In this document: positions 21,802-51,274 of the stretch, piece by piece
How the letters are laid out: every line of letters starts with the position of its first letter
Position numbering within the stretch: the first letter of the stretch is position 1
Assembly (NCBI GenBank): GCA_032718475.1
Contig: JAUCBJ010007452.1
Coordinates: 32,079 to 96,078, forward strand
Source: Nemertoderma westbladi
Lineage: Eukaryota; Animalia; Xenacoelomorpha
Length of the DNA: 64,000 nt
Direction: 5' to 3'
Program-made: the position numbers and the translations under genes
The notes under the pieces: model-generated
Seen by the model: the letters and a program-made list of their open reading frames with translations, nothing else
What the model was told of the DNA's origin: nothing
Database searches by the model: none

Positions 21802-22386
21802 TGTGACGGGATCCGAGAATCCCGGTTTATCCGTTAGCTTTCCTACGCGTCTCCACCGTGCGTGTGTGAAAAGAGTTTTAGTTGTTGACTGATCGGTGTG
21901 TATAAATAAGAAGGTATAATATAACTGAATAGGATATAGCACAGTTGACACAGTTGATTGATGATTAAGTGTACTGGTAAATAGAATGACAATACTGCAG
22001 TACACGGAAACGGAGATGGTGGAAAGAGTCCCGGTACCGCCCTAACTAACTGACTTACTAAAGTGAATGAATATACACAAAGACCGGTAATATATTGCAC
22101 GGTTGGCCACGTTGCATTACTCAGTCGATGCTTGCCCCCCATTGGCTGATAACTCATTTCTCACCCTCCCATTTCCCTGGGTGTGTTTCCCCCTGTCGCT
22201 ATTACTCTCTCCCTCCTGGAGGTGTAACCTCTGACCCCCGCTGTGTGTGTTCCCTTGGGGTTTGTTGCCCCGCTTATTGGGGTGATACAAGGTTGATTGG
22301 TAATCAACCTTGTAGTTCCAATATTGCTTAAACCTCCTGCCCTCCCAACTTTGTGTGGGGTGGTTGGCGGAATTGATACGCTAACA
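21802..22386 (-). repeat. 3' LTR of element B (585 bp); poly-G PPT abuts at 22387-22400
   Basis: tgtgacggg...gctaaca; about 8 substitutions and one 6-nt indel versus the 5' LTR, counted by eye. Confidence 0.95.
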
Positions 22387-23041
22387 CCCCCCCCCCCCCC
22401 ATGCTATCTTCCTGGTGAGAAGATAGCATCCACCTATAGTGCGCTACAATTCCGCTGGATCCCGATCTATTATCGAGTGTGGGGTGGAACTATTTTTTCT
22501 CGGAGCCGGCTTTCCAGACCGCCCCCTATGGGTATGATATCGCTACCCTGTTTACCTGGCGTCCCGTGTCGGGCCGATCGTGCGCTCCTCTCACACGACT
22601 TTTGTTTCCCCAACACTTTCACCACTAACTCTACTCTGTTCTCACCCTGACTCTCCTCTACTTCTCCTCACTTCCGCTCTAACTCTCGGACCTTCCCATC
22701 CCTCACTCAGCCTCTTATTCCTCCCCCCCCCACACTTGAATTGCCTATCTCACTCACTCACTCCCGACGAGTCTCACCCCCCTCCCGTGCCGTCGCACTC
22801 AAGAAGTGTGAAGTCGTCCAGCGTCCCGTTTGTCATAGTCAATCGTCCCCCAGTCCCAGTAGCTAATTGGAGAAAGGTTGAATGACTATAGTACTTTCTT
22901 CAATTATATTTTGCTAAACTAATAATGATTACTACGTACGTACCTACTAATTGCACTTTTCAATTATTTAAATTACTTGAATTTGTACTTAGGAGTTCGC
23001 ACGTCTCGGGTGGTGCCTTCCAGGCATGTTACACCGAAGTC

Positions 23042-23461
23042 TTAGTTCGTTCCACCAGCCTTTGGGAACCACCTCAAGTCTTTCCCTCTGTCGTCCTCCT
23101 CCCTAGGTCGTTTCCTGGTCACTGCCGCTCCTTTGATCTTGTCTGCTTTCTGGCTTCGGACCCTCGCCGCCACCTCCTTACTGATCCCGGTCGTCGACTC
23201 CTTGGGTGCTGGTGTTATTAGCTCCCGGTATCGCTTCATGGGTTGCCCCTCCGAGTGGCCCTGTTGTCTCCCCCTGGTGGCGTCCCATAGGATAATTTTC
23301 ATTGCCCGCGGCACATGCTCCGCCAAGAAATCCCTGAACTCTCCTCTGTTCTGTGGCGTCCACCTGTCCAAATACCTCTGCGTATTTATCACTCCGGCAT
23401 ACGACGCCGCCGTCGCCACTTCCTGGTAGGTAAACGGAAGCCTCCGTTTGATAATCTCCAT
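23042..23461 (-). CDS. Element B accessory ORF, probable frameshifted C-terminal continuation of the exonuclease ORF; function unknown
   Basis: 139-aa open frame overlapping the end of the 444-aa ORF on the same strand. Confidence 0.4.
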   Translation of the reverse strand: MEIIKRRLPFTYQEVATAASYAGVINTQRYLDRWTPQNRGEFRDFLAEHVPRAMKIILWDATRGRQQGHSEGQPMKRYRELITPAPKESTTGISKEVAARVRSQKADKIKGAAVTRKRPREEDDRGKDLRWFPKAGGTN

Positions 23462-24723
23462 GTGGGCCTCCTGATTAATGTTAAAGTGGACCCACTATGT
23501 CCCTTCCCGCCTTGGCTCTCGCCCATAACTTTCCATCCTTCTAGCTCCCCTAGCCTCCTTAACGGCTGATCGCCCTCGGCGCCTGCTGGTATGGGCGTCG
23601 TCTGCAATCCCGACGTCGACTGTTTCGGTGATCCCACCGTCCATCCTAATTCTCGCCCTAGAGACTCCCCCGAACTCCCTGATGAGGTCCAACGAAGTTC
23701 GTCTAAGGCCGCCTGTTCCTCGAAGCCGTAGCTCTGTGCCCTAGCTTCCTCCTCCCTTTCCTCTGCTTCTCTCCTCTCCTGTCTAGCGACTTCTTCCAAT
23801 CGCTTCGCCTCTCGTCTATCCATCTCTAGCTGCTCCCACCTCTGATACGGCGTATCTACCTCCCCGTCTACCAGATGCCGGCTGTTATAGTACACCGACT
23901 CGCCCTTCAGCCCCGGGTGGTCTACCAGACCCTCGAAAGCCGTCTTAAAGGCTCTTCTGTAGCTTAGGGGTGATCCCGATAATAGGAATGCCGTTGGTTC
24001 CCTTTCGATAACCACGGTCATGAATAGGTTAAGCAAACCCATCATTATCCAGTCCTCCCGTAGGATATATCGCTTCTGATATACCTTTATCGCTCCTCTC
24101 CGGAATTGATACACCTCTTGTCTCCCTGGCCTCGCTCCCCACTTCAGCGAGTTCGCCAAGTCCACTCCATACTCCCCTCTGAACTTACTCCAGTCCATCG
24201 GTTTGTGACACACAAGCCCCATTAACTGGCCCATTGCCACCGCCCCGCAATGTCCTGTGTTCTCCACTAGTCCCAACCCGTCTGGTGCTGTCATAGCCAT
24301 ATAGACCGTCTGCATATCCAGAAGGTTGGGGGTGTCCAGACCGATGATTCTCTCCGCGTCGTCGCGAATCGTCGATCCCACTTTCGTCGTCGACTTCTCT
24401 CTCACTAGGGTTTGCACCGCCTTCGGCAACCGGTTCAACTTCGGCCCATCCTTCTTTCCATACGTTCCTAGATCGAATAGGAATATATCCCCATTTGGCG
24501 TGGCCAAATGTAGGAGTATGGTTCTGGCCGACCCCGCCGATCCTCTCTTCGAACCCTCCTCTTCTTCCACGGTTCCTTCGTCATCTAGGATCATGTATCC
24601 TCCCCTGCTGACGGACTCTACGAACCTCTTCCAATCTTTCCTCGGTGGCTCTCTCGTGTACTTCGGAATCCCGAACTTCGCCTCGTCTCCTTTCACCACA
24701 TAGTGGAAATGCTCGAAGATCAC
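23389..24723 (-). CDS. Element B accessory ORF: DEDDy 3'-5' exonuclease (WRN-exo/EXD/RNase D-like) plus coiled coil
   Basis: ExoI MILDDEG, then LLHLATPNGDIFLFDL, LPKAVQTLV...KVG; ExoII IRDDAERI; LLDMQ; W..R; ExoIII QKRYILRED. Upstream ORF 24720-25028 is probably its frameshifted N-terminus. Confidence 0.75.
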   Translation of the reverse strand: MIFEHFHYVVKGDEAKFGIPKYTREPPRKDWKRFVESVSRGGYMILDDEGTVEEEEGSKRGSAGSARTILLHLATPNGDIFLFDLGTYGKKDGPKLNRLPKAVQTLVREKSTTKVGSTIRDDAERIIGLDTPNLLDMQTVYMAMTAPDGLGLVENTGHCGAVAMGQLMGLVCHKPMDWSKFRGEYGVDLANSLKWGARPGRQEVYQFRRGAIKVYQKRYILREDWIMMGLLNLFMTVVIEREPTAFLLSGSPLSYRRAFKTAFEGLVDHPGLKGESVYYNSRHLVDGEVDTPYQRWEQLEMDRREAKRLEEVARQERREAEEREEEARAQSYGFEEQAALDELRWTSSGSSGESLGRELGWTVGSPKQSTSGLQTTPIPAGAEGDQPLRRLGELEGWKVMGESQGGKGHSGSTLTLIRRPTWRLSNGGFRLPTRKWRRRRRMPE

Positions 24724-25429
24724 GTTGTCCAGCGACGCGTGCCGTAGGTCCCGACCAGCCGCTGTTCGTGCACCTCCCCGAAATGGTCCTGTAGCGCTCG
24801 CGCTGCGTGACCTCTCTCTAACCGCTCGTAGTATCCCCTCGTCTTCTCTTCCGGATGCCTCTTGGTGAAATCCACTAGTATTTCTTTTCCTCCTGACTCC
24901 GCCTTTCTCTTCCTGATCAGTTTTCCCGCCATCCCGAACTCTCTCACTCGCTCACCTGTAAGGTGGTGCCTTACCAAGGCGCAGTACAGATGAGTGATAA
25001 GGTTAAGATGGTCTGTACAGTTCGACAATGGCCTAATTCCTATTTACTTTTGAGTTATAGCCTAACTTTGTTTCTGAAACTGTCAAGTTACAATAAATAA
25101 ATCTAAATTACAATTTTGTCCGTTACTTTAATTATGTTCCAGAATTTACTTTCTACTGTTACCATAATTTGTTAATTTTCTAATTTCTTATTTATTTTTA
25201 ATATTTTAATTTAATTCAATCCTACTACTGTGTTACTACTTACTATTGCCAATGGATTACTCTATTTCATAATCCACGTTCTGGCCTACTCTGTGGGCTT
25301 GTGCAGTACAACAGTATGCGTCGTGTGGCCTACACGATTTATCCAGCTGTACTCATATGCCCCCCTCTCGCTACTCACTACTAACTGATACCTACATTAT
25401 ACATACCCTTCTACCACTAACTCTTACTA

Positions 25430-25607: not shown

Positions 25608-28600
25608 CTATTTGCCTACAGCCCTTCTATAGGTCTTTCTATCTTTCGCTCCTATCTTCCCACCTATCCGCACTTCTACCGATCGGACTCTTCCGTCCTC
25701 GTCGGAGTAAGTGCCCACAACTCTCGCCAACCGCCATTGGTTGTTGATGATGGTATCGTCTGTGACGATCACCAGATCACCCTCCTTTAGCTCTCTGTTC
25801 GTGATCCTCCACTTGCTTCTCCTATGGAGCATGGGTAGGTATTCCTCGACCCACCTTCTCCAGTACTCTGCGCTTATCGCTTTAGCGACTTTCCAACTCT
25901 GTCGGGAGTGTATATCGTCTGGGTCTACACCCCGCATGTCGATGGTCGCTGGCCTCTCCATTAGAAAGTGACTAGGCGTCAACACGTCTAATGACTCCGG
26001 GTCATCATTTTCTGGATATAGCGGTCTGCTATTAATGATACCCTCGCACTTTGCTAGTACCGTCCTTAGTACGTCCTCTGCAACCATGTGGGTGTTCATC
26101 AATTTCGTCATCAGACGCTTGGAACTACCCACTAGTCTCTCGATGCCTTCCAAGAGTATGCGGAGCATACGGCGTCCTCCTCTCCCACTTCACCTGTCGT
26201 CTTCTCATGGCTGCCCTGACTTCTTCCCCTTCCAGGATATCCAAGGCATCCGCCATCTCGTTCTCCGCCCCCACAAAGTTGGTTCTGCTGTCAGAATATA
26301 TTACTGCACTCGTCCCACCTTTGCGGTCTCTGAACCTTTCTAGAGCATTAATGAATGCTGATGCGGTTGCATCTTGGGCGAGTTCTATCCCTACCGCCTG
26401 TGTGTTGTTACATACGAAGATGATGCCGTAGCGCTTCTCCGTGTGCCGCATCACCTTAATTTTTATCGGCCCGAACATATCCACACCGCAATGCGTAAAT
26501 GGCGGGTCGTGCTGTCTTACTCTACTGGCCGGTAGTGGCGCCATCTCCTGTATAGCTCGCTCCTTCTTAGCTCGTCGGCAGGTCTGGCACTGCCCCACTA
26601 CCGCCTTTACATTCTTTCTCAACTGTCTGACCCAAAAGGTCCTTCGTATCTCTGTGAGGGTTCGGTTGGTGCCCCCGTGCAATATCGACTTATGGGAGTC
26701 CCAGATGATCTGATAGACTATCGGTGATCCATTGGGGATGATGATGAGCTTCGGTGGGATGACAATGCTGTTGTTTTTCAACACCCTAGAGTTCATTACT
26801 AGGATCCCGTCATCATTGAGTTGTGGTGACAGTGTGATCAGCTCGCTGTCCCGTCGGAGATGCTGTTGTTTACCGACGCGTTCCACCTCGTCGCCGTAAT
26901 TCTTCCTTTGTTCGTAGCGGATGACGGCTTTAGCCGTCCCCTCCAGATCGACGGTTATTCTACCCTTTGTATCTCTACCGATTCCCCTAAGGAAGTCCCC
27001 GAAGGCTCTCCAGTACGCCACTAACGTCTTGGTCTTATACCAACTAGAGCTGTAGCTAAGGAGTTTGTCCGTTGGGATATCGCACAGTTCTTCCGGTTTC
27101 GGTTGCACGTCCCTTATCTCTCTCACCATCTGGCTGTATATCTCCTCACCTTCTGAATCTACTCCCTCCTCCTCTAACGCTACTTGTTCTGCGCCCGGGT
27201 CCACCTTTCTCATCGGCGGCCAGGCTGTCCTATCATTAAGAAATTGCGGCCCATGCTGCCACAATACTTCCTTCTTCAAGAAAGTGTGGCGTGCCACGCC
27301 CCTCAATAACAAGTCCGCTGGGTTCTCGTCCATTGGGCAGTAGTGCCACCTTCCTAACTCTGTAATTGCCCTTATTTCGTCCACCCTATTTGCGACGAAT
27401 ATAGGGTATCTCGTCCTTTCGTTGTGTAGCCAACCGAGCACTACCATGGAATCCGTCCAGTAGTGTGTTTCCACTATGTTGGGAATAGCGTCCACTAAGT
27501 AGGCTGTGGCCCTAACTCCTAATCTCACAGCTGTCAACTCGAGTTTCGGAACTGATGCTGAATCTGGTGGCGTCGACTTCGCTTTACTGGAATGCGAGTC
27601 TGGGCTTGTGAGCCCCCTCTCGCTGTACTAAGTAGAGTGCCGCTCCGTATGCCTCTAATGACGCATCGGAGAACATATGTAAATCCAGATTCGTCATGTT
27701 CCCGTCCGGGAAATATGCACGTGGCATGCTGTATGTTCCCTTCTGCTCTAAACTCTCTGTCCACTTGCTCCATTGCTTGCTAATCTCTTCCGGGACCTCT
27801 GTGTCCCACTCGTCCTTTAAATTGTATACTCTCTTGAGTATCTGTTTCCCCGTGACTAGTAATGGGGATGCTAGGCCTAGGGGATCATATATCCTTGCTA
27901 TGTACGACACATAGCCCCTCTTTGTGTGGATACCTGCGCCCTCCTGACTCAACTGGTATTTTAACTCGTCTGTCTCTCGGTTCCACACGATTCCTAGTGC
28001 CTTCTGCTGGGACTCCACTCTCTTGTTCGCCATGTCCTGTCCCTTGGCTGTCGTGGGATTATCCATGGTCGATTCTGGCCTCCTGTCCTCTATGGCTTTC
28101 ATCAACTCTTGCGAGCTGGATTGGAACTTGGTTAGGTTGAACCCGGATCCTTTTAGGATGTCGCGAACCTCGCGCCCCGTGTCCAGTAGTTCCTTAACCG
28201 TATTTCCAGACTCCATCCCGTCGTCTACATAGAAACCTCATCGAATCATATCAACGGCTTTGGCGCTGAACTTATTCTCCTTCCCTTCTACCGTGTCTCT
28301 TACGGCCATAGTCTTTGTAAATGAAGACGACTTGGCTCCCATGTTCTGTACTATCATCTTATCCATTGGTATGGTCGACGGTTCCTCAATCCGTTCCTGA
28401 ATCTGAGTAGGACCTCGATCCCTGAGTTGTAGATGTTGGGACCCTCCAGCAGATAATGGTTTAGGCATTTTCCATTGGTCTTGGCCGATGCGTCAACTAC
28501 CATCCGCAGTTTACCTTTCTTCGGGTCTAGAGCCACGTGGAGTGGCAGGTAATATGTCCTGTCCGTGTTTGGTTCATCGACCGGTAACTCCACGGCCCAT

Positions 28601-30014
28601 CCTTTCTCGACATACTTTCTAATTGTCTTGTGAATGTACTCATTCTTCTCGGGGCTCCGTTTTAGCGTCTGCTTCAACTTACGAAGCCTCGTGAGTACCA
28701 TTCCTTTGTTGTCGGGTAACGGTAGCTTCGGTAGCTTCCATACCATTCCTATGGTATACCGCCCCTCATCGCATGTCATCGATTCCTTTACACTTTGTAG
28801 AGCCTGCTTGTCTTCTACCGAGGTTCCGACCCCGGTCTCCTTTAATCCCTCAAAATCCTGCCTGAGCAGTCTCCTGAGCTGCTCCTCCGCTCCCTCATCT
28901 CCCATTTCTCGCATAGTTCCCGCAAACATGCATCCTGATGTCTCCGACATCCTAAATGGTATCTTACTCCTGATTGGGCCACTCAGCATCCACCCGAATG
29001 GTGTTAATATCGCCACCGGGTCACACTGCCTGTCTTCGCCGAAGACCGTTCGCATTCTCTCGTGGGCCGTCGGGCAGTCCATTCCTACTATGATGGATAC
29101 CTTCCTGACGTCCACCTCTGGGATTGAGAAGTCGATACTGTCCAGGAATCTATATTGTTCGACCTCGATGTTGGTTGGCCGCCTGGCGTTAATATTTATC
29201 GACTCTATTACCTGGATGGGGTCGATGGTCGCCCCATAGTCGCATCCCGGTGCTATCGCTGCTATCGCGCACCGTCCGGTCCTCATCTCCAGAACCTCAT
29301 CTTTGCTGGAGATGGTTGTTACCGCCATTCTACTTGGCCTCATCCTCAATCCTATCTCTTCGGCCACCCAATCCTCAACTAAGGTGAAGGCTGCACCACT
29401 GTCGACCAGCATCAGTGTGGTTACTGATCGATTGCCTTCCCCGATTACCCTTACTGGTACTACCCCCAATAGTACCGTTCCTCTCTTCCTTGCCGCTACG
29501 GTGCTCGCTGCCATTGTCTGTCCTTTGCTCTGACCAAACTTAATTGGCGTTTCTTTGCATTGGTTGGCTCTATGTCCACTCATCACACATCGCGAGCAGA
29601 TTTAATTTCTTCTCGCGTATTCTACCTGATCTTCCCTAGGTAGTGCTTGCCAATACCTGCAGTTCATGGTCTGATGAAGCGCATTTGTATGTAGTTGGCA
29701 TTTGCTCTTTGGGTTGTAGCCATCCTTATAAAGTGCGTTGCATATCGCACTTATATTTGTACCAAAGTCCCTACTATTCTTATTGTTTGGGTTCGGCCTA
29801 CTGGGCGTGCTGGGGTTATGTTTATTTGTGTTGTTATTTTTCCCCTGTCCGCTCCATGATGTGGTCTTACCCCCGGCTACTTGTGGACTGGTAGTCCCCT
29901 GCGTTGCTGCGTACGGCAGTGACTGTCTGAGCTTTGGCAATGCGTTCGACGCGTTGTGCTCTGGTTTCGGCCTGTGGTAATCGGTCTTTGGTCCCTCTCC
30001 CAGGCTATCCTCGC
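25608..30014 (-). pseudogene. Element B Gag C-terminus and pol (PR-RT-RH-IN), with frameshifts, stops and an RT deletion
   Basis: Knuckles CQLHTNALHQTMNC and CSRCVMSGHRANQC; PR LVDSGA; RT FYVDDG, but the segment after FRNG that carries the first catalytic Asp is missing; RH FSDAS, WTDS, NPAD; IN GVDMFGP, YSDS, ERLVG. Confidence 0.92.
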
Positions 30015-32234
30015 TGTTGTGTCCTCTACGGTAGGGACTACCCTACAGCCTACAAATCTACCAATACGAAGCTATAGAATATCTCTATCCGTAAAGTCCA
30101 GTAGCATACCGCTTACCAGATCCTAGTAACGATGTATCTTACTATGAGACTCTAGTAATGAAACGGGCTCGTACAGTATCTGACAACAAATCCCAGTCCA
30201 GGATATCTAAACAAACAGATACAATACACAAACTACTACTGGCGAGGAGCAGAGCCTGGCGTCTATTCTATGTACGTGGGCGGGTCTAATGCCTACGTAC
30301 TAGACAAAAGGATACCTGTCCTCTAACCGGTATGGCAGATGTACAGTTACAGTAACAGACCAAACTCACGGGAAAACAATCCCCGCGCAGCGAATCCTAA
30401 CTATCGCTGACAGTCCTAAATACAGTAACTTGCCGCGGTGTGATTTATATGGTTTATATACGAGCTAAGTGGGTTACAGACCTAGCGTTACAATACTGAT
30501 CTCAGTCCTTAATCAGTCTAAAGGGGGTCGTGCCTAATGTAACAATACTGTTGAGCAGAAAACAACAGTTTAATAACGAAAATGAAATACTCCTTCTCAT
30601 GCCGTAACTAAATATCTGATCCTAATTTTACAAATACCGAAAGTACGATAAATATACCTTGCCTAAAGTGATCTAAAGTACGCTATAACTAGTAGGAACT
30701 CTAAGGGTAAATATGTTTTAGGGCGTGTGTGTGTGGGTGTGTTACAATAAAACAATTTTGGTGTATATCTTTTCACTAGGTTTTAGTGATTTTCTGACCG
30801 AAATGATACCGTGCGCTAGCTACTAAAATGAACTAGTCGCGTTTTGTAGAACTTTATACTCACAAATGACGTCAAAGCTCTCTCCTTCCTATCCACAACT
30901 CAAGGGGCAACCACGGTGTTAGTAACTACACCCGTGATCGGCACTAATACCAGATTCTGGTTGTAAGATAAGAAATAGGGGTTAGTCGCTACCGTACGTT
31001 AGCTGATCTGGTATACAAATTTGATTCTAGAACTTTGTTGCCGCGGTAGTTAGCAGCAATACCTATCAGTACGTGGCAAGGCGCGGTAGGATATTAATAA
31101 AAACCTCCCTAGGCCAAGCGATGTGCCGGTAGCAGAAATACTCCTTGCCTGATCAAATAACTAACTTCAGGCAGGGGGGGGGGGGGGTACTAATGTATGT
31201 TCTACAGAGCGAACCGGTACCAAACAGTCAGTACTACAAATCACTAAATTATGGAACATATGCTGTCCGTACCTAATATGTACTTGCGTACTGACGAACG
31301 GCAATAGCTCGCAATACCTGTGAGGTATACAGGTAACCCGGGGATTTGCAGGACTGACAAAGGGGTTTCTGCCTAAATATAATTATTTGATCCTAAATTT
31401 TGCGGCGTCCAGGACGGCGTCACGCTTACCCTGATCTATAGGTCTTACGGCGGGCAAGGGCGTCGAACAAAGTCTTACCTTCCTCATAAAGCGGGCGCTG
31501 CATGGCAAGTGGAGTATTTCGAAGGGCGAAGGGGGTGTGCGGTCAAATCCAATGTGGGCGCTAGCGTGTTGTGGACATCTTTCCCCTGCGTTGCTGACGG
31601 CCTAACGGTCTAGGCTGCCATCTTCCCGATGTTTGGCTGTCCCAAAGTTGGACCAAAAGAAAACATGTTCAGGAGTTTGCAGTGTATTTACAGTTTAGCA
31701 AAAGATTTATCAAACAGAATTACAATAGTTTCAACAAGAAACCAACAAAGTATAACGAAATGATTAGTGCAACTAGTGCAGCAAGTAAGCAAGTAGAAGT
31801 ATGTGTGTGTGATAACCGAAAGCAAACCAGCCCTTTATATACTAAATCTGGGACATAGAATTCACTAGAACCTTCGAGAGTATTCGATGGCCTCACATTG
31901 GAGCAATAAGATATTCCATGCCCTATGATTGGCCCAACTCATCGTTCGATACGTTGTACGCACCTCATTGGCTTACCAATCTGTACCAAATGAAAATAAA
32001 TGGCCCCAAAATACAAATTTCCCGACCGGGATTCGAACTCGTAACCTATCTGTAATGTAACCAACGCCTTAACCATCTGACCACTACGCCACGAGAGTAA
32101 CTAGAGGTTTTATGTATACAAATATGAATAGGCATATTACATTACTGTAACTTAATCAAAATGCGTCGGATTTTCGAAAGTTTTTACGTTAAAGTTAAAC
32201 TACAAATGCTATCTTATAGTGAAATAATTCATCA
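30015..32234 (-). repeat. 3' LTR of element C (2220 bp); PPT-like TGGAGCGG abuts at 32235-32242
   Basis: tgttgtgtcc...ttcatca, direct repeat of 45126-47346. Confidence 0.96.
32021..32090 (-). other. tRNA-derived Pol III promoter module (A and B boxes) in U3 of the C 3' LTR
   Basis: TGGTCAGATGG ... GAGTTCGAATCC at tRNA spacing; acceptor stem does not pair; TTTT follows shortly downstream. Confidence 0.7.
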
Positions 32235-32564
32235 CCGCTCCATGAAAACAGTAAGTAAGACTGTTTTCACCAATCGAAATACAAAATATTTACAAACTAC
32301 TTCTAAATCTACTGGTGGGACCTAAAATATAAAATAATCACTATCTAATTATTGCATACTTAATATTGCAGGTACAGCGTAAATACAATCCATCATACAT
32401 ACAAAATACAAATTTACTAATTAACTTTAGTGCATAAAATACAAAAGGGCTTTCGGTTATCAAGATAAACAAATTAAACAAATTAGATCAAAACAAATTA
32501 GAACAAATCAAACAAATAATTTCAATCTTTCAATAAATCTTTATATATTGTAAATATACATAAT

Positions 32565-32735
32565 AAACTTCCACCAAATTAAATCAGTCCAAATATAAAA
32601 TAAACACAAGGCGCTAATAACTTCCACCAAATTAAATCAGTTCAAATATAAAATAAACACAAGGCGCTAATAACTTCCACCAAATTAAATCAGTTCAAAT
32701 ATAAAATAAACATAATACGCTAATAACTTCCAAAT
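32565..32735. repeat. ~53-bp tandem repeat x3 in the 3' UTR of C
   Basis: taataacttccaccaaattaaatcagttcaaatataaaataaacacaaggcgc. Confidence 0.8.
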
Positions 32736-33895
32736 AAGTTGTAAAGTGTCCTTCTGCGCTTGTGTCCTTCTGGGCTCCTCCCCGAGGCGCACCCACGAGG
32801 CGGACACCTTTCCACCACCCCTGGGGCCAGTCTGACTGCCTGTTATTATCAGACCGGGCCGGAGGGTGGCCCGATGCTTCCCGGGTTCAATTTTCAATTC
32901 CCCGATCACACCGGCACAGATCGTCGCACGTGTAGCCAGATGGTCGGCTACTGTCAACTTACTGTGGCCTGACTGTACATTGAGCCAACTCAGAGAATCA
33001 ACCGGCGGGTGGACCAGTCAATAGCGATCGAGCACCAAGGTCGCCCTTGGGCCTAACCGACGGTCTTGTCCCAAGTGGGCTTGCGCTACCCGACATTGGA
33101 ATTTTGACTCGTTTTCACCCGCCTCGCCGGCAGTATTGGAGGATACTGACTAGCACAAAGGCTAGGAACAAGTCACCACTTAACAGTCACTGTACACGTG
33201 TACTCAACAGATGCTCAAAATATCAAGTACACAAATCGGACACATACCATACACACACAGAAGACAAAATCGGGAAAGACAAAATCGGGGTCAAAGTCAG
33301 AGGGGACAAATTGTATCGACTAGCAGGCTAATTGAGAGTACCTTATTTTGCCGTCAGGGCAAAATAACTTTGTGTGCACAAAGTATGCTGGGGCGCAGTA
33401 GAGATATGGTCCTACTAATACCAGCGGCGTCGTCTGGACCAACTGGAAAGGTTTCCCACACTCACTCGCAGTGGCCACACATACAATCACGTGTACTCAC
33501 GTACCCACAGCAACGGAAAGCTCAAAGACCCAAACAAATACCAAAGACCAATCAGCTGAACATGGAGACAATAACATATAGTATCAAAAAAACGGAACAG
33601 CTGATGGCCAAAGGAACCCATCCAAGCCCCAAGCAAACTGCCACTGGTCTCTCACATACAAATCATAGTTCATACCACATGAGCCACAAATCACGCCATG
33701 CCACCACACCCCTACTGTGTACAGGACTGGCAGTACGGCAACAGGCCGACTAGACGGAACCACGGCACCATGGCGATTCATGGTTCATTAGACACGAGGG
33801 CCTTCAGTGACTCCCTTGCACTATATTTAAGATTTAGCGTGCCCCCAGACCCTTCGAGTCCGCCGCCGCCTGTTGCTCGCACCCCTATAGAGACC

Positions 33896-34734
33896 TCACC
33901 TCTTTAGGTATGAGCTTAAAAGTTCGTCCTGCTGGTCTGGATATCTTCTCCTGAGCACAAATATAAATACCAAATATAAATACCAAATATAAATATCCAA
34001 ATATAAATATCTGGTTGGTCTTGCGACTGGTACTATCGCTTTGGTAGGATGGGGCCGAGGTTCTCGCGTCATCTCGACATGAGGTCGCTGTAGTCTCTGC
34101 GACAAACGCTGAGCGAAGGTGATACTATCGAAGAGCTCGGGTGTCATCTCCTTAGATTCGGTTTGATCGTGGGATATCCAGTAAAATGGTAGGCTCGCGA
34201 GCCTTCCGCCGAACTCCTCGATCTCGCCTTTCTCGTACGCCTTGTACGCCCTGTAGAGGCTCAAAGCTTCCCGTTTCTCTTGCGTCGACTTATTAGATTC
34301 GTCCACTACCATGCTGTAGACGTCTGGTTCGACTAATTTGGGTTCGTAAATAACGATTTCACCCGCGTTCGGTCCACTCATCTAGAACGAATGGTACGGA
34401 TTCGTCAAAGGGTATCCGCCTTCTTGGTAACGTAGACTTTGGTGGTATGAGCATCGCGCTAATATCAGCTCGGGGTTCTCGCAAACGTCGCTGGCATCGC
34501 ATAACGCATAGTAGGGGTACAACGCTTTGAACTCCGCGCGTAACTCCTCCGCTCTTTTGTTATAAGCGTCCAATCGCTGTCGCGTGATGTTTGGATCCGC
34601 CTTGGACTTAGCGAGCTTGGCTGTACTCCTAGCCATACTCTCCACTTCAAACACGTTAAAGTTTTGGCTCCATAACGATTAAACGGTGCCTGGTGCTCTT
34701 ATTCCTGCGTGGATCCCTGATAATAGTGTTTCTA
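33896..34734 (-). pseudogene. Element C accessory ORF of unknown function (one frame, two in-frame stops) downstream of a strong splice acceptor
   Basis: ORFs 34382-34654 and 33896-34381 abut in frame across a TAG; the frame extends up to ETLLSGIHAG... right after CTAAC-polypyrimidine-TAG at 34735-34760. Confidence 0.5.
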
Positions 34735-35409
34735 CTAGAGGAAGCACAAACAGAAGTTAGATGTGAGGAGACTTAGAGTTTTGTCGGCTTTTGGCTCAAC
34801 TTTGCTCTAAAACCCCTACCCATTTGCCTAATGACTTCGGGTTCGCGTGATTTCGCAGTGGCTCTTAATCCAAAATTGTGCCGATAAAAAACGAATTCCG
34901 GGTAAACTAGCCGCGAGTCTAAAATACTCACCTTTTAATTTCCCAAACTATGTTCCCAAAGAAATAATAGTGCAGTCGAGAATTAATTTGGTCTAAATAA
35001 TAGTAGACACGACTACGTAGAACAAGGCCGATTTTCTTTTCCAAAAAAATTTATCGGTAGGCTCGCAAGCCTTCCATCCGCTCTTGTCCTCCCCAATTTT
35101 AAATTTATCTAGCTGTATTCTAGAATTCACATTCACTGGAGAATCATTTTTCTTTTAAATCCAACTAAATGGATTTGTCTAATAAATTTTGAAAAATTGT
35201 CTCACTTGTGGGTTCCAAGTGGAATTCCATTCCTACTGTACACACAATCCCGCTCCTATGTGATACATGTTCACATATAAAGACAATGGAATTCCACCGC
35301 TGTCTCTATCTACAGTGAAGAGGATTACAAATGCACATACAGTAATACAAAATACTAAATTACTAAAATACGGTAAAGCTATGTGTGGCGGCCATCAAAG
35401 GTCCCACAT

Positions 35410-37260
35410 CTATTTACTAATATTGGGTGGAGATTTGTAGTCTCCTGTCTCGTTTCTAGTTTCCTCTAGGAGTACGAGACGTTGTACAGGCCTATCTACG
35501 GTACGTCCGTCGATAGTCCTTACAGTAACGGTCCTTACTACACCGGATGTAGGGTGTGTGGTCAAAATGACTCCAGTCAGCCAAAACCGTCTTTTCAGAT
35601 TAGCTTCAGCCAATAAAACGTGGTCACCACGTCTCAAACATCGTGTATTTAGATACCAAGAGGTTCTGGTCGAAATAGAGGGCAAATAATATTTCTGCCA
35701 TATTTCCCAGAATTTATTTGCAAGTAGTTGAGTGATTTTCCAAGCCTTGTTGCCGTATCCGTCACTATCAACGGGTACCGAAATGGGCAACAATGTCGTC
35801 GGCGCCTGCATAAGCAGGTGCGCTGGTGTCAAGGCAAACTGTGCGTCGTTATTGTCTGGGATCAAAGCTATCGGTCTAGTGTTTAAGATTGCTTCGATTT
35901 CTATTAGTAACGTCGTCAGTTGGTCGTCTGTCATAATGTGTTGCGTCGGTATCACTTTAGCCATAGCTGTTTTTATTGAGCCAATCAGCCTTTCCCAAAC
36001 GCCGCCTCTCCACGGACTGTCTGGAGTGTTGAAATTCCAAACAATACGGTGAGGACGTAGTTCCTCGGAAATCTGGTTTTGGTCCAACTTTCTCAAAGCT
36101 CTGGTTATCTCGTTCCGTGCGCCCACAAAGTTTGTCCCTTGGTCGCAGTAAATGGATTTGACCAATCCACGTCTAGCGATAAATCGCCGTAAGGCTAGGA
36201 TAAAGGCATTGGTGGTCAAATCTGTCACTCGCTCTATATGGACAGCTCTGCTGGCCATGCAAGTGAAGATCAATCCCCAACGTTTTACCTGTACCCTTCC
36301 GCGTTTCGCGATTATGGGTCCAAAACAGTCTATCCCTGTCTCAGTGAAAGGGGGTCTAAATGCCTGTAATCTTGCTAGTGGTAGTTCACTCATTTCTTGG
36401 TGTCCTATCCTCGCGTGCACCTTCTTACAAATCATACAGTTCCGTGTTACCGAACTCAGTGCCTTACTAGGTCTAATCAGTACAAACCTCGATCGTAAGT
36501 GTGATAGACAGTGGTGTCTACCCACGTGTTTGAGTTGTACATGTGCGTCCAGTATCATAGCGCGCTGTAATTCATGGTGTTGCGGTATGATGATAGGATA
36601 CCTAAAGTCAAGTGCAAAGTCGATGTTTTGGAGTCTGGACTTGTGACAAAGTAAGCCCCGGTAAATAATCGGACTCCAACTCAAAATCGGTGAAGACTTA
36701 ATCTGTTTACCTTGGTTGATCGCTGTGAACTCTTGTGCGAAATATCGCAATTGATAATGTCGAATGATATCAACTTCACAGTGGCCAACTTCCTTTAAGG
36801 TAAGTCTTCTAGGAAAGTCGCGTTTGCCTCTGGCATATTGTCTCAAACGTTTGAGCCATGCTAACTTGCGGCACGCGTCAGTCCATGATCTAGTTAGGTT
36901 CACTATCCGGTCAACGTAAGTGTTAGTGACGTCATCAGGTAAGGTGTAGTCGTAGTGTGGATACTTGTCTGGACTTGGTAGGCCCACGGGCCTTCCGGTA
37001 GGTTTGTCTGAGTCCCCAAGTTCGTCAATCTTTACGGTCTTACCTTTACCGTCCGCACCTAATGTGTCGACTGGCAGTAACGGTTTCAACTCTACAGTAT
37101 CAGTGTGTTCCTGTGAGCCTGTAAGCTTCCTAACCTTAGTCACACGTTTACCTGTAGGTGGTAAGTCAAGTACTTTCTTTGAGCAGAGTGTGATCGCTGT
37201 GGCCACACCTTTGTCGTCCAAAGAAGTCAAATTCGGTAAGTCTCTAAAAGTCCGCTCCAA
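35410..37260 (-). CDS. Element C integrase (HHCC, DDE, C-terminal domain)
   Basis: H..LKH...CMIC; GIDCFGP; YCDQGTNF; GGVWERLI; LNTRP; RPVQRLVLL. Confidence 0.93.
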   Translation of the reverse strand: MERTFRDLPNLTSLDDKGVATAITLCSKKVLDLPPTGKRVTKVRKLTGSQEHTDTVELKPLLPVDTLGADGKGKTVKIDELGDSDKPTGRPVGLPSPDKYPHYDYTLPDDVTNTYVDRIVNLTRSWTDACRKLAWLKRLRQYARGKRDFPRRLTLKEVGHCEVDIIRHYQLRYFAQEFTAINQGKQIKSSPILSWSPIIYRGLLCHKSRLQNIDFALDFRYPIIIPQHHELQRAMILDAHVQLKHVGRHHCLSHLRSRFVLIRPSKALSSVTRNCMICKKVHARIGHQEMSELPLARLQAFRPPFTETGIDCFGPIIAKRGRVQVKRWGLIFTCMASRAVHIERVTDLTTNAFILALRRFIARRGLVKSIYCDQGTNFVGARNEITRALRKLDQNQISEELRPHRIVWNFNTPDSPWRGGVWERLIGSIKTAMAKVIPTQHIMTDDQLTTLLIEIEAILNTRPIALIPDNNDAQFALTPAHLLMQAPTTLLPISVPVDSDGYGNKAWKITQLLANKFWEIWQKYYLPSISTRTSWYLNTRCLRRGDHVLLAEANLKRRFWLTGVILTTHPTSGVVRTVTVRTIDGRTVDRPVQRLVLLEETRNETGDYKSPPNISK

Positions 37261-37284
37261 TGGGTCCTTTAATGGAGTGTCTAG

Positions 37285-37680
37285 TAGACAGTCTGGTGAA
37301 GCGTCCGGTGAACAGTCTGGTGAGACGTCTGGTGAGACATAGCGCGGAACTTCCAGCGAAATGTCCTGTCATCGGTCCCAAGGTCTGTCTGGCGTAACTT
37401 CTGTCAGAAAGTCTGGTCCAAAGTCTGGTGGACAGTCTGTCGAGATGTCTGGTGGAAAGTCTGGTGAGACGTCCGGTAGACAATCTGTCGAGAGTTCCAT
37501 AAAACAATCTGGCGAACAATCCGGAGAACAATCTGGTGTCGCTTCTGGTGAATAATCTGGCGAATAATCTGGTGAACAATCCGGCGTAACGTCTGGTGAA
37601 ATCTCCCGCGGAACATCCGGCGAAAGATTCGTACAAGCGTCTGGTCGAGTGTCTGGTGAGACGTCTGGCGTAATGTCAGG
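37285..37680 (-). repeat. 12-bp coding repeat (PDxS)n between RNase H and integrase of C
   Basis: tctggtgaNacN units encode SPDCSPDYSPE... Confidence 0.85.
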
Positions 37681-40600
37681 TCTGGCGTCCAGGTCATCAG
37701 ATTTCGTCCGTCCTTGTTTCCTCTTGACCTTGGCGTTGGCTTTCGCTTTGGACTTGACAACCTTGTCGATTTTTATCTCGGCACCTTCTGGTATGGTGTT
37801 GGTTGTCGCGTCGAATAACGGTGGCCATTCGTCTGATGGTCGCTGTAGGAAATCGGGTCCTCTAAACCAAAAGGATTTATTGTCCGGTTTACAAAAGTCA
37901 AGCGGTTGCATCCCCCGTGACGCGATGTCAGCTGGGTTCAGCTTCCCTGGACAGTGACGCCAATCTTGTTTGAGCGACCGGTCTAGTATTTCAGCCCGTC
38001 TGTTGGCTACGAAAGTCTTGAACTCAAACGCTTTGTTGTTTATGTACCAAAGTACCAACGTCGCATCCGTCCAATATGTGACCTTCAAGTTAGCCTCCAG
38101 CTCGCGTTGAACTAGACTGACAATATCGGTGGATATCGTCCCGGCTTGCAGCTCTCCACGAGGTACAGTCATATACTTCAATGGCATTGTTCTAGCCTTT
38201 GAAGTAACGAGAGACACATCGTAGCTGTCCGATGTCACTTGTCGTCTAAGGTATAAAGTAACCCCCAATCCATCCTTGCTAGCGTCACTAAAGCTGTGAA
38301 GCTCTAATTCAGCAGGAAAGGTGGTTTGCAAAGGAAAGTATACCCTCGGTATGGTATAGTCTTGTATGAACGTCAGTTGGGCTTCCCAGTCCCTCCATCG
38401 CTCAGCTAACTTTTCTGGGATGGGATCGTCCCATTCCAGTCCGGCTTGCCAAATGCTGCGGAGTATGATCCTAGCATGTAGGATCACTGGACTAATGAAA
38501 CACAATGGGTCATACAATCGACTCATGGTCGATAAGCAAGTCCTCTTTGTGAGAGGTCTAGTCTGGTCGTTGGACCTTACACGTACCCTAAAATTGTCGG
38601 TGTTAGGGTCCCAACTAAGTCCTAATACTTTGGTCGTCGGTAGAGGTTCTAGGTCTAAGTCTAAGTCACCTCCACTGCGATCCATCGGGTCAAATGAGTT
38701 TACCAGTTCGGGTTCGTTGGAAGCGACCTTCGTCAGGTGAAATCCGCCCTCAGCGAGACAATCCTGGAGTTGGTGTGCTGCGGTTGTAGCGCGCTCCAAG
38801 GTGTCACAACTCTTGAGGCCGTCATCCACGTATAAATCTCGTTCCACTGTCCGAACTACTTCTGGGTCAAACTGGTCTTGTCTGTCCAATGCGGTCTGCT
38901 TTAAGGCGTACATGGTGCAGTTGGGGCTGTCCCTGGCTCCGAATACTCTTACCTGCATTTGGTAAGTTTCTGGCGGAAGTTCTAAGTTTCCGTCCGGATA
39001 CCAAAGAAACCTCAAGCTGTCCCTGTCCCGCTCCAAAGCCTTAACCTGGTGAAACATGGCCTCTACGTCACAGGTGAAAGCCACTTTGCGTTGTCTAAAA
39101 CGCATTAGGACTCCCATGCGGTAATTGTTCATATTCGGCCCGTCCATCAGTTCGCTGTTCATAGACATCCCTTGGTAAAGCGCGGCGCAGTCGTTGACTA
39201 CACGCACCTTGCCAGGTTTGTCCGGGTGTCGAACAAAATGATGTGGCAGGTAATATGTCTGATCTGTGGTTACCTCGGGATTTAACATCCTAATGGCGTA
39301 TCCCTTTTGGAGATACGTCTGAGGTTGTGCATTGTATTGCATATGGGCTGTCTCGTCTCGCAACAATCGCTGCCTTATTGATTTGAGTCGCCTCAAAGCA
39401 AGCGGGTAATTGTTAACGAGCTTAGGTTGTCCATTGCGCCACAACATACCAACCTCATAGTGGCCATTCGCGGTCTGGCGAATGGTATCTCTCATAATAT
39501 TTAATGACCGTTTTTCCTGTTCTGACATAGCGGTCTCGTAACTACCGGGTTCTGCTGAGTCCTGTTCCAACCATTGAATGGTCCGTTCAGTCAGCAGTCG
39601 GTCAAGCGCTGCTTGCACTGCGCCATGGTCCTCGTCCACGTCTTCGTCCGCTGCGGTGGCTAGTGTCAATGCGTCTGGTAGGCTCGCAAGCCTTCCGGTG
39701 TCACTAGTCGGCGTCGAATCGTCGTGCGGCGGTTTGACAACTTCTTGATCTATCGGTAGGCTCGCAAGCCTTCCAAGATCAACGACCGGTGTCGACGCCT
39801 GGTGGGTGGGGTCGATGACCTTTGGATTTTTCGGTAGGCTCGCAAGCCTTCCAAAATCCTCGTTCATCGAGTCATCCACAGCAACAACCCTTTGGTCTTC
39901 GGTAGTCAATACAACCTGGTTTACTGCAAGTAGTTGTAAGTCAGAGGTCCGTGTGGTCATGTCCAGATCAGTTACGTCAGTAGCGGTGGCGTCTGCGTTA
40001 GCGACGCAAGTCTGTCGTAGTGCCGTCCGTACAATTGGACCACGGGAGTGTGAAGGAGAGTTATCTATCATAGTAGTCAATAAACTACACGTACTCAGAA
40101 CATCGTCCTCCTGGTCACTTACCTCTAGTGAACGTATTGGTGCTCTAGTATACCAACCTATGGGAGTTCTACATGCGTAGGGGTTGCCCGCTGTAATAAC
40201 AGATGGGCGTGTCTCCCATACCTGATGTAAGTTAAACTGGTCTGTCCCAATTAACATCGCAATGGAACGATAATTAACAGGACATTCCGGTATTCCAAGG
40301 TGTCGGAAATACTTACGATCTTCCGGTGATTGCTCTGGCACAGGGCCGAGCAAGTTACTAAAGTCCTTCGTAGCTGCAAAGGTCAAATTTCTTACCGGAA
40401 GTAATGAGCGCTCCTCCTTGCTGTGTTCCGCTTTGGAAAGAAGGGTGTCTAAGGTTAGTTTTACTCTTGTCAGAGGGATCGCTCTCTTACCATGCATGCT
40501 GCTTACAGTATACTGAGCAGTCTTACCTTGACTCATGTCCGTAACCACATCGGCTACTTGTTCGTCGACATAACTATGCGATGACGCAGAGTCTAAGATG

Positions 40601-42021
40601 GCGTATATACGCTTGCTCCCTCGGGTTCCGGTAATCTTTATAGGAATCACGCTAAACCCTTTCAATTGGTTCTGTCTGAGGAGCGTTATCGATGGCTGTT
40701 CCTCACCCGCATGCACGTAAAAAGTGTCGTCTTCCTCCTCGTCCTCGTCCGATGATCCTGACTGATCCATACAGTCTGCATAAAAGGTACGGATCTCGCG
40801 CGGCGCACGCTCCTTATAAAGCGAGTCGCATCTAGCCGCTTTATCTGGATGCTCTCGTCGAAAGCGTTTGGTCGGAGTATGACTGGTTGTGTGGAGCAAC
40901 GCGTCATGGTTACGTCCACACTGAGGACATGTATCGTCGCTCGGGCAATCCTTCCGGACGTGTCCTGGCTTCATACATCTCCAGCAGGAATCTAACGATC
41001 GAATTTGGAGTCTCCTTTCTTCAATCCCTAACTCCTTAAAAGCGCGACATCCATGAAGTTTATGTCCGCTATGGTTTCTGCCGTTCCGCTCGCAGTATGA
41101 GCATCCCGCAAAGTCCGCCGGCAACTGTTGTCGTGGCTGCGTGGTGCCGATAGGCGTCAGAACTTTAGAAGTTTCAGTAGGGGTGGCGTAGGTAACGGCT
41201 TTCGCGTTCGTCGGAAACGGTTTAGTCCGATTCGGCGCAGAAATAGCTATCCCTTCCGCCGCGATATGGTGATCGGTATAGTTCGATCGAGTCTCGATCA
41301 CGGCCTCCCGTGAAATCAGTTGATAGACGTCGGTGAGTTTTAAAAGCCCGCCGGCCTCTTCACCCTGGTACTCGATGCGTCGCCATTCTTGTCGTAGTCG
41401 ATGATGAAGTCGACCGATTATCCTGATGAGAACCGTCGGTGCGTTAGCGTACTCGAGTTGTCCAATGGACCGTAAAGTCCCTATAGCGTTCTTGATTTCG
41501 TCCGCGAGTCGTAGAAGATCGATCGGTTTCGAAATGCTGCCTCCTTTACAGAGGTCTTCGATAATGGATTTAGCCATGGCGACGTTACCTCCGTAAATCG
41601 AATATAAACGGTCGTACGCTAACTCAAAGGCATCGGGAACACCAATGAAGGTTTCCGCTAATCGTTTCGGCTCACCAGACAGGACTAGGAGCAAGTAATT
41701 AAACTTCTCCGTCGAGGTGAAAGCACACTTAGCGATCTGGGACTCTACGTAGTCTACCAATGTACGCCAGTGTTTCGCGTTGCCAGAGAACTTCGGCGGT
41801 TGCTGTGCCGGTAATCCGTGTCTAGCCGCGAATTTCGCAATCTCGCTAACCAAATCCAACTGTCCGCGTCCCTGTTCGGTGGCGTCGTCCAGTCGCTCCC
41901 TTCCGCGCGTTGTTCGTCGGTAGGAATTATTTACGGGATCTTCTTCTCGATGTGTCGGAGTCTGTCTAGTCTCCTGTTCTCTCCTTGGTGGTCGATGTTG
42001 TTCAGGTTGTTCTAACTCCAC
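37369..42021 (-). CDS. Element C Gag-PR-RT-RNase H polyprotein (1550 aa)
   Basis: PPKFSGNAKHW; knuckles CSYC..H..C, CWRCMKPGHVRKDC, CPQCGRNHDALLH; AILDSASS; TCDVEAMFHQV; LYVDDG; FSDASK; WTDA; NPADIASRG. Confidence 0.95.
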   Translation of the reverse strand: MELEQPEQHRPPRREQETRQTPTHREEDPVNNSYRRTTRGRERLDDATEQGRGQLDLVSEIAKFAARHGLPAQQPPKFSGNAKHWRTLVDYVESQIAKCAFTSTEKFNYLLLVLSGEPKRLAETFIGVPDAFELAYDRLYSIYGGNVAMAKSIIEDLCKGGSISKPIDLLRLADEIKNAIGTLRSIGQLEYANAPTVLIRIIGRLHHRLRQEWRRIEYQGEEAGGLLKLTDVYQLISREAVIETRSNYTDHHIAAEGIAISAPNRTKPFPTNAKAVTYATPTETSKVLTPIGTTQPRQQLPADFAGCSYCERNGRNHSGHKLHGCRAFKELGIEERRLQIRSLDSCWRCMKPGHVRKDCPSDDTCPQCGRNHDALLHTTSHTPTKRFRREHPDKAARCDSLYKERAPREIRTFYADCMDQSGSSDEDEEEDDTFYVHAGEEQPSITLLRQNQLKGFSVIPIKITGTRGSKRIYAILDSASSHSYVDEQVADVVTDMSQGKTAQYTVSSMHGKRAIPLTRVKLTLDTLLSKAEHSKEERSLLPVRNLTFAATKDFSNLLGPVPEQSPEDRKYFRHLGIPECPVNYRSIAMLIGTDQFNLHQVWETRPSVITAGNPYACRTPIGWYTRAPIRSLEVSDQEDDVLSTCSLLTTMIDNSPSHSRGPIVRTALRQTCVANADATATDVTDLDMTTRTSDLQLLAVNQVVLTTEDQRVVAVDDSMNEDFGRLASLPKNPKVIDPTHQASTPVVDLGRLASLPIDQEVVKPPHDDSTPTSDTGRLASLPDALTLATAADEDVDEDHGAVQAALDRLLTERTIQWLEQDSAEPGSYETAMSEQEKRSLNIMRDTIRQTANGHYEVGMLWRNGQPKLVNNYPLALRRLKSIRQRLLRDETAHMQYNAQPQTYLQKGYAIRMLNPEVTTDQTYYLPHHFVRHPDKPGKVRVVNDCAALYQGMSMNSELMDGPNMNNYRMGVLMRFRQRKVAFTCDVEAMFHQVKALERDRDSLRFLWYPDGNLELPPETYQMQVRVFGARDSPNCTMYALKQTALDRQDQFDPEVVRTVERDLYVDDGLKSCDTLERATTAAHQLQDCLAEGGFHLTKVASNEPELVNSFDPMDRSGGDLDLDLEPLPTTKVLGLSWDPNTDNFRVRVRSNDQTRPLTKRTCLSTMSRLYDPLCFISPVILHARIILRSIWQAGLEWDDPIPEKLAERWRDWEAQLTFIQDYTIPRVYFPLQTTFPAELELHSFSDASKDGLGVTLYLRRQVTSDSYDVSLVTSKARTMPLKYMTVPRGELQAGTISTDIVSLVQRELEANLKVTYWTDATLVLWYINNKAFEFKTFVANRRAEILDRSLKQDWRHCPGKLNPADIASRGMQPLDFCKPDNKSFWFRGPDFLQRPSDEWPPLFDATTNTIPEGAEIKIDKVVKSKAKANAKVKRKQGRTKSDDLDARPDITPDVSPDTRPDACTNLSPDVPREISPDVTPDCSPDYSPDYSPEATPDCSPDCSPDCFMELSTDCLPDVSPDFPPDISTDCPPDFGPDFLTEVTPDRPWDR

Positions 42022-42093
42022 GCTGGTTCGTGATCGATCCGACGGTTGCGCTTCGAGTCGCTCTTCTATCTGAGCTAGTCGGTCCGTTACAGG

Positions 42094-45115: not shown

Positions 45116-45125
45116 TATACCTCAC
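45116..45125 (-). promoter_or_regulatory. Non-tRNA primer-binding site of C (GTGAGGTATA), complementary to LTR segment 46431-46440
   Basis: No TGG; the 10 nt abutting the LTR exactly complement minus-strand TATACCTCAC in the LTR. Confidence 0.7.
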
Positions 45126-46945: not shown

Positions 46946-47085
46946 TTTATATACTAAATCTGGGACATAGAATTCACTAGAACCTTCGAGAGTATTTGAT
47001 GGCCTCACATTGGAGCAATAAGATATTCCATGCCCTATGATTGGCCCAACTCATCGTTCGATACGTTGTACGCACCTCATTGGCT
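46946..47085 (-). promoter_or_regulatory. Probable Pol II promoter in the C 5' LTR (TATATAAA plus upstream CCAAT boxes)
   Basis: TATATAAA on minus at 46946-46953; attgg (CCAAT on minus) at ~47009, ~47040 and ~47079. Confidence 0.55.
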
Positions 47086-47132
47086 TACCAATCTGTACCA
47101 AATGAAAATAAATGGCCCCAAAATACAAATTT

Positions 47133-47202
47133 CCCGACCGGGATTCGAACTCGTAACCTATCTGTAATGTAACCAACGCCTTAACCATCTGACCACTACG
47201 CC
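47133..47202 (-). other. tRNA-derived Pol III module, copy in the C 5' LTR
   Basis: Same sequence as 32021-32090. Confidence 0.7.
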
Positions 47203-51216: not shown

Positions 51217-51274
51217 CTTTACTTTACTTTAGTATAGATTGGTGGCTGGCAGTCACAGTAACAGGCAGCTTGGT

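Follow-up and report, generated by a model that had tools for sequence, protein, structure and literature searches.

A putative DEDDy-like exonuclease gene in the env position of a BEL/Pao retrotransposon from Nemertoderma westbladi

DEDDy-type third genes have been described in the Juno and Vesta elements of bdelloid rotifers and in Athena/Terminons, with a proposed function and an undemonstrated activity (Rodriguez et al. 2017, PMC5408684). In Dada DNA transposons, a DEDDy domain lies inside the DDE transposase and is proposed to act on DNA ends (PMC3706591). For BEL/Pao elements, the Belpaoviridae profile describes third genes as env-like only and gives an 18-nt primer site for a transfer RNA (tRNA; Arg or Gly) (PMC8742986). 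Here we analyzed a 64,000-nucleotide stretch of Nemertoderma westbladi (GenBank assembly GCA_032718475.1, contig JAUCBJ010007452.1, positions 32,079 to 96,078), hereafter the window, in whose own numbering all coordinates are given. This DNA is of animal type and rich in repeats, among them three BEL/Pao long terminal repeat (LTR) retrotransposons, A, B and C, all on the minus strand. In element B an extra gene occupies the env position, and our sequence comparisons support its product as having a DEDDy-type 3'-5' exonuclease fold. We are highly confident both of this identity and of the gene being a regular part of its element family.

The original prediction, made by a model from the letters alone, had placed a sense open reading frame (ORF) past the integrase in the env position, and this was confirmed. 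A minus-strand frame of the same sense as pol is open from stop to stop over 520 codons (23389-24951) between the end of the integrase region (25608) and the polypurine tract (22387-22400), about 650 bases past the former and 1 kb short of the latter. The predicted bounds, 23389..25028, hold for this open frame and probably not for the gene. In the coding frames of element B, third codon positions are rich in G and poor in T, and the exonuclease core follows pol in this respect, with a third-position G of 0.45 and low T, a sign that it has long resided in the element. The first ~70 and the last ~100 codons of the 520-codon frame deviate from the pattern as off-frame sequence does, and the pattern is kept by an overlapping frame that starts with an ATG at 24932 and by another that ends at 23042. 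Because the codon-position pattern shifts between frames in this way, the extra gene probably spans 24932 to 23042, ~630 codons, with probable breaks in this copy close to 24720-24745 and 23700-23745 and a further one at 23497. The core exonuclease domain itself is unbroken, and in this copy gag and pol have suffered breaks on about the same scale as the extra gene. Its parts are as follows.

24720..24932, minus strand: probable N-terminal coding segment, starting at ATG 24932 in a separate frame, with codon composition as in pol.
23950..24690, minus strand: DEDDy-like (WRN/EXD2-type) exonuclease domain, unbroken.
Key residues of the domain, numbered from 24951: D123 (24585), E125 (24579), D198 (24360), Y295 (24069), E299 (24057) and D300 (24054).
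23700..23949, minus strand: charged Glu/Arg-rich segment downstream of the domain, from its composition probably a coiled coil.
23042..23494, minus strand: probable C-terminal coding segment of 150 codons in a separate frame, with no Pfam match.

As predicted, no transmembrane segment is evident by hydropathy, the measure used here in place of a dedicated transmembrane or signal-peptide predictor; the peak 19-residue Kyte-Doolittle values were 1.27, 0.74 and 0.49 in the three frames, and by this measure the extra gene does not qualify as an env (membrane fusion) gene. An AG lies 24 bases upstream of ATG 24932, but it ranks 4 of 90 in the linker with a score below zero, so that a spliced message for the extra gene is a guess.

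The motifs LDDEG, LHLAT, KVG, RDDAE and YILRED, on which the prediction was built, all lie in frame and in this order, and the resemblance goes beyond chance. With hmmsearch, a broad DEDDy profile of 64 sequences found the extra gene at E 4.3e-4, the sole significant match among 720 ORFs of the window (runner-up, E 1.2), and a profile of 75 bacterial sequences again put it first, at E 0.019. The bacterial loci had been chosen by a WRN/EXD2-type ExoI motif and gave a usable protein in 75 of 120 cases; the broad profile combines 25 of these with 39 further domains, and a profile of a 24-sequence bacterial subset returned WRN, Nibbler and EXD2 as its top PDB matches. HHalign aligned the extra gene with a probability of 91 and a score of 46.85 across 67 columns; of the 139 decoys, 69 shuffles peaked at 19.2, 69 windows cut from BEL polyproteins peaked at 19.3, and the reversed sequence scored 10.3. 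A DnaQ-type match, on which the original prediction depended, was thus obtained. Local significance is confined to the middle of the domain, ~65 columns from beta2 to ExoII. When HHalign was run by group, the WRN/EXD2-like proteins scored 37.2 (n=41), the polA exonucleases 29.5 (n=6) and the RNase D proteins 20.5 (n=14), scores that depend on group size.

In motif scans, beta2, ExoII, the D-box, the Trp motif and ExoIII were top-scoring where expected and in the right order. The ExoII Asp after the KVG strand is D198, with a motif score of 19.7 versus 4.6 for the next position. For ExoI, global and multiple alignment agree with the prediction in placing the D-x-E of LDDEG at D123 and E125; as a stand-alone motif it is weak, falling outside the top three of its own scan. 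The predicted W..R scaffold fits loosely, with two candidate Trp residues. YILRED as ExoIII holds in its Tyr, as Y295 aligns with the conserved one, and departs from the canonical Y-x3-D: in two alignments E299 occupies the Asp column and D300 lies one place on, which counts against an active nuclease. Because of this Glu at the last catalytic Asp column we class the extra gene as DEDDy-like and not canonical; catalytic activity of the protein in spite of it is fairly probable. D, E, D, Y, K and G are invariant when the query is aligned with 48 bacterial WRN/EXD2-like proteins, to which it is 12-22% identical, the ExoI columns being invariant among the 48 by construction, as these were picked by that motif. 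The same alignment places 13- and 21-residue insertions between ExoII and ExoIII.

Direct database searches returned little. Pfam had no match for the whole ORF or for two domain cuts, NCBIfam and the PDB sequences had none to the extra gene, and phmmer against 1.84 billion representatives gave 0 matches at E 0.001. A word-indexed protein search gave 0 of 1709 candidates, scans for related loci confirmed 0 of 86 metagenome, 0 of 158 prokaryote and 0 of 16 viral contig pattern matches, and tblastn against plasmids and phages found nothing significant (best E 0.6). Since the protein is invisible to Pfam and to the 1.84-billion-protein search, similar genes are probably being missed. The ESM Atlas returned scores of 0.94-0.95; its top three matches are unnamed eukaryotic clusters (proteins of 213-214 aa), which may form a so far unannotated pool of free-standing DEDDy-like proteins. 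The next cluster (0.94, 174 shared features) carries PF01612 in 34% of its members, and 24 of 30 matches lie within that family set. With PF01612 clusters removed, only an arenavirus nucleoprotein remained, at 0.77, a lead at most.

Structure prediction from the single sequence was poor (AlphaFold predicted local distance difference test, pLDDT, 38.6), and fold searches from that model were uninformative. Guided by the alignment with the 48 bacterial relatives, AlphaFold reached a pLDDT of 70.3 and a predicted template-modelling score of 0.69, with 83-90 for pLDDT in the ExoI strand. This model matched DEDDy chains (Foldseek E 2.6e-7; Z 13.7, root mean square deviation 3.3, 180 aligned), a circular result in that a DEDDy alignment was the input; because the alignment imposes the fold, the match indicates compatibility only. 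The fold matches include structures of Nibbler, MUT-7, EXD1, RICE1 and Egalitarian. A ranking of subfamilies by fold search was rejected, the ranks being tied and the comparison circular.

Whether the extra gene is private to this copy was judged from public contigs of four runs, from at most three samples and three studies, of which X1-X3 are three runs of two studies. The contigs of the four runs cover 30 of 30 bins of 21700-30100. For individual positions within the domain, each of X1-X3 has 27-43 contigs with a different letter; the corresponding figure in integrase is 37-61 (40 of 1618 variable places were listed). That many contigs differ in letters inside the domain argues that many differing copies hold the extra gene. 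The share of contigs continuing into unlike sequence is 0-0.01 in X1-X3 and 0.22 in the sparse run X5. The region that the prediction required in other copies of the family is therefore carried by them, and we infer that the extra gene is a family part, probably linked to an integrase gene elsewhere as it is here. Several points weigh on the other side: the runs were found using a stretch that includes the extra gene, depth does not equal copy number, no piece among the short ones listed bridges integrase and extra gene, and one X2 contig lacks the greater part of the gene.

The extra gene resembles ORF3 of Juno and Vesta in being a separate sense ORF past pol, in the env position, with a DEDDy-type fold, no transmembrane segment and one non-canonical acidic residue. 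Compared by published description, it differs from ORF3 in its BEL/Pao host and in its motif, D-E-D-E here and DEED in rotifers, and it is longer, adding the charged helical segment and the C-terminal part (PMC5408684). With Dada it shares a WRN-like domain borne by a mobile element, and the ExoII region resembles Figure S1 of that report by eye; unlike the extra gene, the Dada domain sits inside the DDE transposase and has all four catalytic residues canonical (PMC3706591). Like WRN exonuclease, EXD2 and MUT-7/Nibbler (PF01612), the protein shows the beta2-ExoII motif order and spacing, the ExoI D-x-E, and an ExoIII Tyr followed by Trp; unlike that group, it is only 12-22% identical to the aligned bacterial members, falls below Pfam detection, has Glu for Asp in ExoIII and carries two insertions. 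Among the 120 listed of 309 long relatives of the element's polyprotein, PF01612 occurred in pol-fused form in 0, which is weak evidence. The precedent of Cer1 on which the original prediction had drawn was not confirmed, as a search for the terms exonuclease and DEDD gave 0 occurrences in PMC3315495, and the available portion of PMC3118150 mentions no exonuclease. We found neither a BEL/Pao element with an exonuclease gene nor an intron-derived primer in the published full texts, in the portions available, a coverage that leaves out most subscription journals, Repbase entries and supplements. A DEDDy-like accessory gene, already known in Ty3/Gypsy elements, Terminons and Dada transposons, thus appears to be new to BEL/Pao.

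Element B is a BEL/Pao (Belpaoviridae) element by its TG...CA LTR ends and target-site duplication and by its domain order, which is DUF1759, protease, reverse transcriptase, Peptidase_A17 (the RNase H region), integrase zinc finger and DUF5641. The reverse transcriptase was recognised by its YVDD motif, without a Pfam match. Its features outside the extra gene are these.

51284..51874, minus strand: 5' LTR of element B, 591 nt, TG...CA, with a 5-bp target duplication on both flanks of the element.
47344..51228, minus strand: gag region of element B in several broken frames, with DUF1759 at E 1.7e-10 (Pfam).
30015..47346, minus strand: element C, nested in gag of element B and younger, recognised by LTRs, target duplication and Pfam.
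25608..30014, minus strand: remaining gag and pol of element B, with protease, reverse transcriptase (YVDD), RNase H region, integrase and DUF5641, in several broken frames.
22387..22400, minus strand: polypurine tract of element B, a run of G.
21802..22386, minus strand: 3' LTR of element B, 585 nt.

The two LTRs differ in 14 of 591 columns, 6 of which are a single deletion. Across RNase H and integrase, identity to the nearest BEL/Pao polyproteins is 28-35% among the 120 listed of 309 long relatives, every one of the 120 having PF05380, and at so low an identity the lineage of element B must be sparsely represented in databases. As in Belpaoviridae, element B has LTRs, the order gag, protease, reverse transcriptase, RNase H and integrase, a polypurine tract and an optional third gene; unlike that profile, its third gene is nuclease-like and its primer site pairs with its own LTR (PMC8742986).

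This last property is common to the three elements. In A, B and C, the bases directly downstream of the 5' LTR can pair with a stretch of the element's own LTR, as in Tf1-type priming, over 11, 9 and 10 nt, lengths reached by 1, 3 and 9 of 2000 dinucleotide shuffles, respectively. The site of element B has TGG one base from the LTR but departs from the consensus of tRNA 3' ends; A and C lack TGG. The features concerned in element B are listed below.

51275..51283, minus strand: primer-binding site, flush with the LTR end.
51501..51509, minus strand: LTR 9-mer complementary to the primer-binding site, the candidate 3' end of a self-primer (3' LTR copy, 22019-22027).
51477..51546, minus strand: candidate 70-nt intron in the 5' LTR, with its donor at LTR position 329 and its acceptor at 398.

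The donor of the candidate intron ranks 2 of 32, and the acceptor, the first AG past the pairing site, ranks 1 of 36. The 9-mer lies inside the candidate intron, 24 nt before its end; the two LTRs agree at both splice sites and in the 9-mer, and the single deletion falls within the intron. In element C, 2 nt separate the end of the 10-mer (46429-46590 region; primer-binding site 45116-45125) from an acceptor that ranks 2 of 143, a score to which the 10-mer itself contributes. Upstream donors rank 1 and 3 of 160, the best lying 160 nt upstream, so that C is a possible second case of an intron-derived primer. Element A has an 11-nt near-palindromic primer site that matches LTR position 429. Positions meeting the splice layout number 29 of 541 in the LTR of B, 58 of 2171 in that of C and 8 of 1124 in that of A. 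Like Tf1/Tj1, element B has a short primer site complementary to its own LTR, and unlike them its site is inside a candidate intron; the Tf1/Tj1 primer is a 5' segment of the mRNA that has to be cleaved, and the portion of the source available describes no accessory exonuclease (PMC4600332).

Our tentative proposal, to which we assign a probability of roughly 0.3, is that the job of the extra gene is trimming the primer for reverse transcription. The protein would be made from a separate, perhaps spliced, message and would shorten RNA of the element at its 3' end, the best candidate being an LTR-derived primer that replaces tRNA. A free 3' end would first have to arise downstream of the 9-mer, through a cut or through splicing out of the candidate LTR intron, the latter leaving a 24-nt tail. 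Single-stranded RNA would then be digested by the enzyme up to the duplex, so that the remaining 3' OH lies level with the end of the LTR. In favour of this, primer pairing flush with the LTR end in A, B and C would call for an exactly trimmed primer, and in B the pairing segment lies 24 nt short of the top-scoring LTR acceptor. Among relatives, Nibbler and MUT-7 trim the ends of small RNAs. RNase D-type relatives process 3' ends of structured RNA (PMC5408684). An excised-intron primer, with a long tail in B and hardly any in C, would explain a trimmer in B only. The complete scheme, in which the elements prime with an intron spliced from their own LTR, the exonuclease of B trims its 24-nt tail to the duplex at the LTR boundary and C with its 2-nt tail needs none, is improbable.

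A number of observations weigh against primer trimming. The original prediction had tied the exonuclease to self-complementary primer sites, and a strict co-occurrence does not hold: all three elements have such a site, and element C shows no DEDDy profile match in six frames though its 3' region is present. The gene is therefore not needed in cis for this primer type; the tail length, 24 nt before the candidate 3' splice site in B versus 2 nt in C, rescues the connection in part. The remains of element A, most of whose coding region is lost, also gave no DEDDy match. The splice rule fails for element A, where the first AG ranks 21 of 72, and splice sites were scored by crude, approximate matrices, with layout rule and thresholds set after the data were seen. 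In cis, the 9-bp helix of B has a pairing probability of only 0.02-0.2, and an extension of the pairing beyond the exact core was rejected as no better than shuffles (103-547 of 1000). Tf1 reportedly makes its primer with its own RNase H. Finally, the recurrence of DEDDy genes in Ty3/Gypsy elements, Terminons and Dada transposons suggests, by analogy, a more general use.

Such a general benefit would fit an active exonuclease that counters small-RNA silencing by the host, degrading or mis-trimming precursors of Piwi-interacting or small interfering RNAs or sliced element RNA. This role, which we regard as possible but doubtful, draws on the same DEDDy homology by profile, HHalign and alignment, and on the fact that unrelated mobile elements have captured DEDDy genes repeatedly; element C, too, self-primes on paper without such a gene. 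Nibbler, MUT-7, EXD1 and RICE1 are among the fold matches, though with tied ranks and from a model built on a DEDDy alignment, and a silencing role is raised in PMC5408684. Against it, the sequence score, in a comparison of the WRN/EXD2-like, polA and RNase D groups, prefers the WRN/EXD2-like group over RNase D. If the domain is instead weak or dead, it might bind RNA as an adaptor, in the manner of Egalitarian, EXD1 or Maelstrom, with the charged helical segment dimerising or carrying RNA to the site of particle formation. The Glu in the last catalytic column, the divergent ExoI with its low score alone, the two insertions between ExoII and ExoIII and the presence of Egalitarian and EXD1 among the fold matches all agree with this, as do the inactive DEDD derivatives with retained RNA binding noted in PMC5408684. 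We nevertheless hold it to be unlikely, as three carboxylates and the Tyr kept exactly, and a fourth residue still acidic, at 12-22% identity would hardly be expected without selection for metal binding.

A further role that we consider distinctly unlikely is on the element's complementary DNA (cDNA), where removal of non-templated or mispaired 3' nucleotides would give flush ends for integration or let reverse transcription resume. The WRN/EXD2-like group is the best match by sequence (37.2 versus 29.5 and 20.5), though these scores vary with group size; the primer-binding site abuts the LTR with no spacer, so that the ends must be exact, and a DNA-end role has been proposed for the Dada domains (PMC3706591). 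BEL/Pao elements lacking the gene nevertheless integrate normally, element C with its 99.6% identical LTRs and clean target duplication being one. That the extra gene is a captured host gene fragment or a separate insertion with no role, or that the exonuclease match is a chance one, seems very improbable: it would account for the absence of matches in Pfam, NCBIfam, the PDB sequences and the 1.84 billion representatives, for the poor single-sequence fold (pLDDT 38.6) and for the broken state of this copy, but it is opposed by the decoy-controlled profile match, the codon-position pattern equal to that of pol, the many differing copies and the similarly broken pol and gag.

Since nuclease third genes of LTR retrotransposons were described in rotifers in 2017, no function has been demonstrated for them, and the BEL/Pao case would represent an independent capture in another family, one whose third genes were listed as env-like only. 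In element B, the candidate substrate is also well defined: a primer duplex of 9 bp that carries a tail at its 3' end. With the domain unbroken as well, a single purified protein and synthetic RNA would suffice to put primer trimming to the test. If the complete scheme is true, a trimmed, intron-derived primer would be a new route to a retroelement primer, and its trimming the first job assigned to a retrotransposon-borne DEDDy protein.

The other repeats of the window show features of their own. The LTRs of element C (45126-47346 and 30015-32234; 99.6% identical, with a 5-bp target duplication) are 2.2 kb long, well over the 0.2-1.2 kb stated for Belpaoviridae. Its gag-pol is one frame interrupted by in-frame stops. 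In the stretches 33896-34381, 39749-40180 and 35410-37368, the short peptide motif RLASLP is repeated several times in the pol linker of C and in a small 161-codon frame after the integrase, and a low-complexity SPD-rich insert in pol separates RNase H from integrase. A tRNA- or SINE (short interspersed element)-like stretch with A-box and B-box look-alikes, seen by eye, lies at ~47130-47205 on the minus strand in the LTR of C and in the 3' LTR copy; ARAGORN and Rfam gave no match in the window, this stretch included. Element A (9593-21496) has LTRs at 9593-10775 and 20323-21496 that are 98.5% identical; its gag is intact across 1256 codons and most of its pol is lost. Next to the 5' LTR of element B, a LINE (long interspersed element)-type, non-LTR reverse transcriptase fragment occupies 51875-53917 on the plus strand (RVT_1, E 1.2e-11), and judging from this one flank element B seems to have inserted into it. 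Tandem arrays with units of 62, 47-50, 89 and 16 bases are present at 1-2300, 3400-4500, 55600-59000 and 63377-63712, respectively.

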